Made by a program: the position numbers and the translations under genes. A stretch of DNA of 64,000 nucleotides from Eledone cirrhosa (taxonomy: Eukaryota): positions 192,882,001 to 192,946,000 of the forward strand of contig OZ024743.1 of assembly GCA_964016885.1 (NCBI GenBank). Direction: 5' to 3'. The notes beneath the pieces were generated by a model. That model had not been told where the DNA came from, did no database searches, and saw nothing but the letters and a program-made list of their open reading frames with translations. Positions 12,674 through 12,711 of this stretch are shown piece after piece (within the stretch, counting starts at the first letter, position 1; every line of letters starts with the position of its first letter).

Positions 12674-12711
12674 CCTTTACCGGTTTCGCAGTTCTTCTGC
12701 TTTTCAAAAGG
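12674..12711 (-). ncRNA. Minimal hammerhead with U3-A8 core variant
   Basis: Minus strand: cctt-TTGAAAA-gcag(aagaa)ctgc-GAAA-ccgg-TA-aagg. Stems I and II are perfect and stem III is the palindrome ACCGGU. Confidence 0.7.

Follow-up and report, generated by a model that had tools for sequence, protein, structure and literature searches.

U3-A8 hammerhead motifs with an ACCGGU stem III in a 64-kb window of Eledone cirrhosa: likely 3' stubs of Penelope-like retroelements

The window, by which we mean the whole 64,000-nucleotide stretch of Eledone cirrhosa DNA analyzed here, is AT rich (34% GC) and holds many (TA)n and (CA)n tracts as well as retroelement pieces. Four motifs with a UUGAAAA or UUGAUAA core had been claimed in a first-pass annotation of this DNA, and all four were found. 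They are given below together with associated element pieces and C3-G8 hammerheads; the copies that the annotation placed at 36427 and 57548 are called the 36431 and 57552 copies here.

12674..12711 including stem I (core to cleavage base 12678-12707), minus strand: U3-A8 hammerhead 1, UUGAAAA / GCAG-AAGAA-CUGC / GAAA CCGG UA
36428..36463 including stem I (core 36431-36460), minus strand: U3-A8 hammerhead 2, UUGAAAA / GCAU..AUGC / GCAA CCGG UA
49636..49677 including stem I (core 49638-49675), plus strand: U3-A8 hammerhead 3, UUGAAAA / GAUGG..CCAUC / GAAA CCGG UC
57550..57584 including stem I (core 57552-57582), minus strand: U3-A8 hammerhead 4, UUGAUAA / U GCAU..AUGC U / GAAA CCGG UA
12400..12538, no strand: (TA)n tract on the 3' side of the 12674 stub and probable target of its insertion
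57345..58020, minus strand: AT-rich 3' region of the 57552 element, which holds the hammerhead and terminates at (TA)n
58021..58345, minus strand: 3' end of a Penelope-like GIY-YIG endonuclease open reading frame (ORF 58039-58345, stop at 58021, frameshift near 58134), 5' truncated
about 5023-5078, minus strand: C3-G8 hammerhead with palindromic stem III, without Rfam match
37535-37590, plus strand: C3-G8 hammerhead with palindromic stem III, without Rfam match
38011-38051, plus strand: C3-G8 hammerhead with normal U4, a relative of the U4C pair described below, without Rfam match

Judged by sequence and pairing potential, the four motifs are hammerheads of type I in which the core carries U3-A8 and stem III is palindromic. 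The core boxes in their U3-A8 form, GAAA, and UH follow one another in type I order in three of the four copies, the exception being the 36431 copy, in which A13C turns GAAA into GCAA. The ACCGGU palindrome (15.2 to 16.2 plus loop 3) is present in all four. Helix II is paired in every copy, over 4 to 5 bp and with differing sequences, and opens with G-C in three copies and with U-U followed by G-C in the 57552 copy. The 12674 copy, with a 4-bp stem II, a 4-bp stem I, and the ACCGGU palindrome, appears to be the best preserved of the four, and its cut is predicted to fall after 12678. The 36431 copy, with a 3-bp stem I in addition to A13C, is likely decayed and dead. The 49638 copy has C17, a 5-bp stem II with its own sequence, and a 2-bp stem I, and the 57552 copy has a 2-bp stem I and a 4-bp stem II with one additional U at either flank (U10.1-U11.1 type). 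The stem II pairs proposed earlier are thus paired and different in sequence, as claimed, except that the stem of the 57552 copy is this U-U-flanked form and not gca/tgc. Helix I measures 4, 3, 2, and 2 bp, of which a length of 2 bp easily arises by chance.

A strict scan (any NTGANNA core, a paired stem II, and G.AA CCGG TH) recovered 12678-12707 (-), 36431-36460 (-), and 49638-49675 (+) in the window, i.e., three of the four copies, because stem II of the 57552 copy carries the extra U on each side; 57552-57582 (-) was missed by this pattern and was picked up by a relaxed scan in which every Y3/R8 combination was allowed. No strict-scan motif occurred in 300 local dinucleotide-block shuffles, and the relaxed scan gave 10 matches against a shuffled mean of 0.375 and a maximum of 2 (40 shuffles). 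As a control, the bare sequence pattern was searched in viral contigs, where it gave 52 matches; stem II reached at least 4 bp in 4 of these, one of which had a 3-bp stem I. The pattern itself therefore does not imply pairing, and the viral matches were taken as chance and not as hammerheads. Likewise, 20 pattern matches in metagenome contigs were considered as covariation evidence and taken as chance, since they showed all four 3/8 combinations and a stem I of 0 in 18 of 20; none was close to (TA)n.

The motif is short, the stems I are weak, and an Rfam search of the whole window at gathering thresholds returned no matches, all of which would be in keeping with chance matches in AT-rich DNA. 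That reading is already refuted by the shuffles, pattern controls, and scans, and we give it next to no probability: stems II that differ yet pair, a distance to (TA)n common to the copies, and the ORF beside the 57552 copy all speak against it.

The relaxed scan comprised six C3-G8 motifs (908, 1082, 18078, 31977, 36174, and 38011) in addition to the four with U3-A8, and two further C3-G8 copies (37535 on the plus and 5078 on the minus strand) were spotted by eye and then folded. Among these 12 hammerheads, positions 3 and 8 are C-G in 8, U-A in 4, and mixed in none, although mixed forms were allowed by the scan, which bears out the earlier claim that U3-A8 is a compensated core pair. Counted per motif, the table of 8/0/0/4 gives a P value of 0.002, but the copies are related and hence not independent; counted per family, the tally of 3 C-G versus 1 to 3 U-A is not significant (P of 0.1 to 0.25). 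The four U3-A8 copies, all with ACCGGU, probably descend from one switch, and U3-A8 would be a tolerated isosteric swap that was fixed once in the ancestor of these subfamilies.

Several of the C3-G8 hammerheads lie in repeats. Those at 908-958 (-) and 1082-1132 (+) are inside a 335-bp inverted repeat (853-1187). The one at 18078-18108 (+) has a 4-bp stem II with U-U flanks like those of the 57552 copy. The hammerheads at 36174-36212 (+) and 31977-32015 (-) are identical and have a U4C core (CCGAUGA), an 8-bp stem II with a GAAA tetraloop, a ACGAUUGU stem III, and a 4-bp stem I; U4C is reported to lower hammerhead activity (PMC3088659). They point outward at both ends of a 1.35-kb inverted repeat (31929-33276 and 34922-36260, 96% identical), which spans the reverse transcriptase (RT) start and the U4C hammerhead. 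A broken Penelope-like RT and endonuclease lies at 33692-35373 (-); its CxCX5C, CxxC, and CxH motifs fit the description of the Hydra clade (PMC8557442), and its Atlas neighbors are unnamed or GIY-YIG clusters. The 870-bp hammerhead arm of the repeat has no homology to this Hydra-type element's own 3' end, and therefore the repeat unit looks like a chimera of two families. Elsewhere in the window are a near-complete non-LTR retrotransposon at 21180-26486 (+), with zinc-knuckle ORF1 pieces, Exo_endo_phos (E value, 4.7e-5), and RVT_1 (E value, 2.8e-27), and a tandem array of about 80-bp units at 1273-2957.

That the fourth copy adjoins the end of a GIY-YIG ORF, as had been claimed, was confirmed: the hammerhead follows about 440 nt after the end of the frameshifted ORF. 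A 55-amino-acid piece of this ORF has 67 relatives at an E value of ≤0.001. Pfam GIY-YIG was found in 8 and RVT_1 in 4 of the 10 long relatives scanned, and tblastn of the relatives onto the window gave the best E value, 5.8e-14, at the GIY-YIG end. A CX2-5CxxC linker before the endonuclease, which marks the Neptune/Nematis type (PMC8557442), is found within the last 220 amino acids of 24 of the 33 relatives of at least 150 amino acids. By these features the relatives can be classed as RT plus GIY-YIG Penelope-like proteins of the Neptune type; the window ORF breaks off before the linker, and its own Neptune-type call rests on the relatives. A word-indexed protein search with two endonuclease pieces gave no match, which is weak evidence, and Pfam gave no relevant family on the window endonuclease pieces themselves.

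Over 57360-58290, run X1 contributed 3,063 contigs that covered 30 of 30 bins, compared with 39 contigs over 27 bins for X5, 27 over 17 for X6, and 14 over 8 for X7, where contig depth is not equivalent to copy number. The 57552 family thus appears to be highly repeated and present in several organisms, and X1 may represent the window's own species. X1 depth is 60,753 in the hammerhead bin versus about 23,000 to 26,000 in the neighboring upstream bins. Among the contigs listed, none spans the distance from the 57552 hammerhead to the ORF, and the link between the two is therefore drawn from their adjacency and from unbroken repeat cover. A contig of X6 (record 22, from another organism) is identical to the window over 57547-57592; its match extends over 57547-57605, and the two differences in that span fall outside the motif, among the 13 positions after 57592. 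Since the motif is unchanged in this contig, the U-U flanks of the 57552 copy would be a family trait and not decay. Identity of the hammerhead block is claimed for X6 only, since for the X5 records, which carry 9 and 13 differences, just 6 of these are listed. The proposal that the variant is linked to a specific Penelope-like element (PLE) lineage rests on the 57552 copy, with its Penelope-like ORF end, and is overstated, as an ORF is present at one of four copies and the U3-A8 forms described in the literature belong to Schistosoma Cercyon elements.

The 12674 copy lies on a stub of ~250 bp between two (TA)n tracts. Measured downstream from the motif, (TA)5 comes 142, 153, 145, and 205 nt after the 12674, 36431, 49638, and 57552 copies, respectively; 7.5% of random points have (TA)5 at 120 to 200 nt. 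As to a pLTR position, an ORF end precedes the 57552 copy, and the other three show the 3' (TA)n spacing alone. No GIY-YIG-type match was found by tblastn in the window upstream of the 12674, 36431, and 49638 copies, and no pLTR pair was seen at any of the four. Upstream of the motif, the 12674 and 36427 (36431) sequences are homologous (76% over 75 nt; z, 11), and in a MAFFT alignment of the four stubs flank homology was confined to this pair, the 49638 stub being misaligned; pairwise scores with 57552 and 49638 stem from the motif and AT-rich sequence. The 36431 stub meets a Hydra-type endonuclease end (36542-36661, plus strand) head-to-head via a 13-bp perfect palindrome at 36490-36516. This palindrome is possibly a template-switch or fold-back scar. 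Membership of the stub in the adjoining Hydra-type element was rejected, as that element leads to the C3-G8 hammerhead at 37535 (+), which has another palindrome. The copies are solo and 8 to 24 kb apart, with same-strand partners 21 to 24 kb away, and a self-comparison of the window revealed no tandem arrays of these hammerhead units.

An ATG-started exon that ends at a GTAAGT donor is found at 19280-19379 (-). Its peptide, which has no Pfam match, looks like the start of a PDZ domain of PDZ-LIM proteins. Should this exon be genuine, its intron would contain the 12674 motif in the sense orientation.

Three of the four copies are without an ORF, and X1 depth is higher in the hammerhead bin than in its upstream neighbors, as would be expected if the motifs were non-autonomous retrozyme or SINE-like units and not truncated ends of autonomous elements; animal retrozymes have indeed been proposed to derive from PLE pLTRs (bioRxiv 10.64898/2026.07.22.740005). 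Tandem units define retrozymes, however, whereas the window is without tandem arrays, the 5' ends vary as truncation predicts, and the 57552 copy comes after an ORF end, so that we regard such units as quite improbable. In the reading that we favor, the motifs would come from the pLTRs of Penelope-like elements, and early 5' truncation during target-primed reverse transcription into (TA)n would have left stubs of 250 to 950 bp.

Stem III is self-complementary in all 12 hammerheads of the window, as ACCGGU, ACUAGU, AUAUGUAU, ACGAUUGU, ACAUUGU, or AUGCGCAU. Because all eight C3-G8 hammerheads also carry a palindrome, a dimer-type stem III is usual in this window and not the mark of the U3-A8 variant that the first-pass annotation had implied. 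Partner specificity could be addressed well in a genome that has so many families with differing palindromes, although not from these four copies by themselves. The folding energy of the ACCGGU-ACCGGU duplex is about -8.3 kcal/mol, whereas in a monomer closing A15.1-U16.1 over a 4-nt loop costs about +5.4 kcal/mol, which is possible but unfavorable. Of the claim that these motifs are obligate dimers, the far greater stability of stem III between two copies is upheld, and "obligate" is a prediction. Monomer folds of stems I and II have positive energy in three of the four copies. The probability that the palindrome forms in trans within homodimer ensembles is 1.0 for 12678, 1.0 for 36431, and 0.91 for 57552 but only 0.02 for 49638, where it is not formed; these ensembles come from a nested folding model, by which a true double hammerhead cannot be represented.

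H17 is A in three copies and can pair with U3, thereby lengthening stem I. In these copies the U3:A17 register is favored over the open core by 1.6 to 1.7 kcal/mol, and the U3-A17 pairing probability is 0.59 in the 12678 dimer ensemble. Such a register could shut the core and would suit a structural dimerization or protein-binding signal of the element RNA, for which cleavage is incidental or absent. In a study of an Anolis PLE, hammerhead mutants left in vitro insertion unaffected and RNA-seq gave no reads with an end at the site (PMC11167929), as such a signal would allow. Still, stems II diverge while the catalytic positions (the 3/8 pair, G5, A6, A9, G12-A14, and UH) stay the same, which is needless for a pairing signal, and the 49638 copy has C17. 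Moreover, an analogous C3-G17 conflict is reported to leave stabilized ribozymes active (PMC3884650). We therefore consider a purely structural role unlikely.

The four U3-A8 copies share one palindrome and the other families in the window use five different ones. It could be imagined from this, and from the stability of the ACCGGU duplex, that dispersed solo copies are active in trans, ACCGGU-bearing transcripts pairing and cutting by a family-specific code able to cut host pre-mRNAs; the 57547-57592 block, unchanged in a contig of another organism in which 2 of the 13 positions beyond it are altered, would fit as well. Cross-organism conservation is, however, expected from selection on the element and not on a solo copy. 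Same-strand copies are 21 to 24 kb apart, one copy has A13C, and published dimers are weak cutters even when covalently linked (PMC4209133), all of which makes trans activity very unlikely. More doubtful still is an extended form of this idea, in which each family's own stem III palindrome is a pairing code by which U3-A8/ACCGGU solo copies meet in trans, the U3-A17 off state is relieved by the element protein, and cutting of stub-bearing host transcripts is confined to times of element expression.

Rather, we hold it to be very probable that the motifs are 3' stubs of 5'-truncated Penelope-like retroelements in (TA)n, that they are of the dimer type and inert as solo copies, and that they reflect a single U3-A8 swap; for the three copies beside which no ORF was found, we infer this origin from motif and spacing. 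Within an intact tandem element, a single transcript would carry two copies, which would join via ACCGGU-ACCGGU and form two active sites. Cleavage by the paired copies would then follow UA or UC; it would be weak and probably assisted by the protein of the element, in line with reports on other Penelope-like hammerheads. Solo copies without a near partner would be inert, as is likely here because the partners are 21 to 24 kb away, the stems I are short, and one copy has A13C.

The closest published counterparts are the min-HHRs of the Schistosoma mansoni Cercyon PLEs, in which U3-A8 in place of C3-G8 is reported for about 1,300, mostly single, copies (PMC4209133, Cervera and de la Pena 2014). 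The cores in Fig. S3 of that paper include UUGAUAAA and UUGAAAAA, the palindrome is at 15.2-16.2, the monomer is inactive, and dimer activity is low. Like those in the window, these hammerheads are of type I; stem III is palindromic, the cores in rows S. mansoni (3) and (4) read UUGAUAA and UUGAAAA, and most copies are solo and derived from truncated PLEs. They differ in having two bases between A15.1 and U16.1, an extra base after A9, and, in two rows, G or U at H17, whereas the window copies have four bases (CCGG) and A or C at H17, and in three of the four the extra unpaired base between 9 and 10.1 is absent; with four bases between A15.1 and U16.1 in all four, the motifs fall outside the strict min-HHR descriptor. 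The window ORF, furthermore, is of the Neptune type by its relatives, in contrast to the Cercyon elements. For Drosophila virilis, the same paper describes a Penelope-type variant whose small helix III is palindromic; four bases separate A15.1 from U16.1 and helix I has 2 bp, features also seen in the window, but the core is C3-G8. Chlamys-2_cBra has the same ACCGGU stem III, again with a C3-G8 core (PMC8557442 File S2, Craig 2021), and U-U flanks like those of the 57552 copy are described as common among Hydra-clade PLE hammerheads (PMC8557442).

Natural U3-A8 variants, earlier shown to be active in vitro, and U10.1-U11.1 variants with the U-U start of stem II seen in the 57552 copy were reported by Perreault et al. 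in 2011 (PMC3088659), where the section describing them mentions no tie to PLEs or dimers. For the Anolis PLE hammerhead, single and double mutants at 3/8 were tested, and the ribozyme was protein assisted and dispensable for insertion in vitro (PMC11167929). Variants of Lunse, Weinberg, and Breaker (RNA Biol 14:1499) share a short palindromic stem III, PLE association, and dimer cleavage, according to a citing review (PMC6765202), in which the dimer model of PLE hammerheads is also set out. In non-LTR retrozymes, by comparison, every unit of a tandem carries a type I hammerhead, whereas the window copies are solo and 8 to 24 kb apart.

The combination of U3-A8, ACCGGU, and a Neptune-type ORF was not found in the literature searched, nor did U3-A8 occur together with ACCGGU in the two published hammerhead tables compared, and the supplement of Lunse et al. 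may contain it. Descriptors based on CUGANGA, as well as Rfam, overlook such motifs, with 12 hammerheads in one 64-kb window and no Rfam matches. The U3-A8 swap and the predicted need for a dimer are already published, as is a 3/8 mutant test on a PLE hammerhead, and the four motifs add at most a new family to a known class. What this family brings to that class is the combination of a U3-A8 core, an ACCGGU stem III, mostly A17, and a Neptune-type ORF, its other features being those published for the class.
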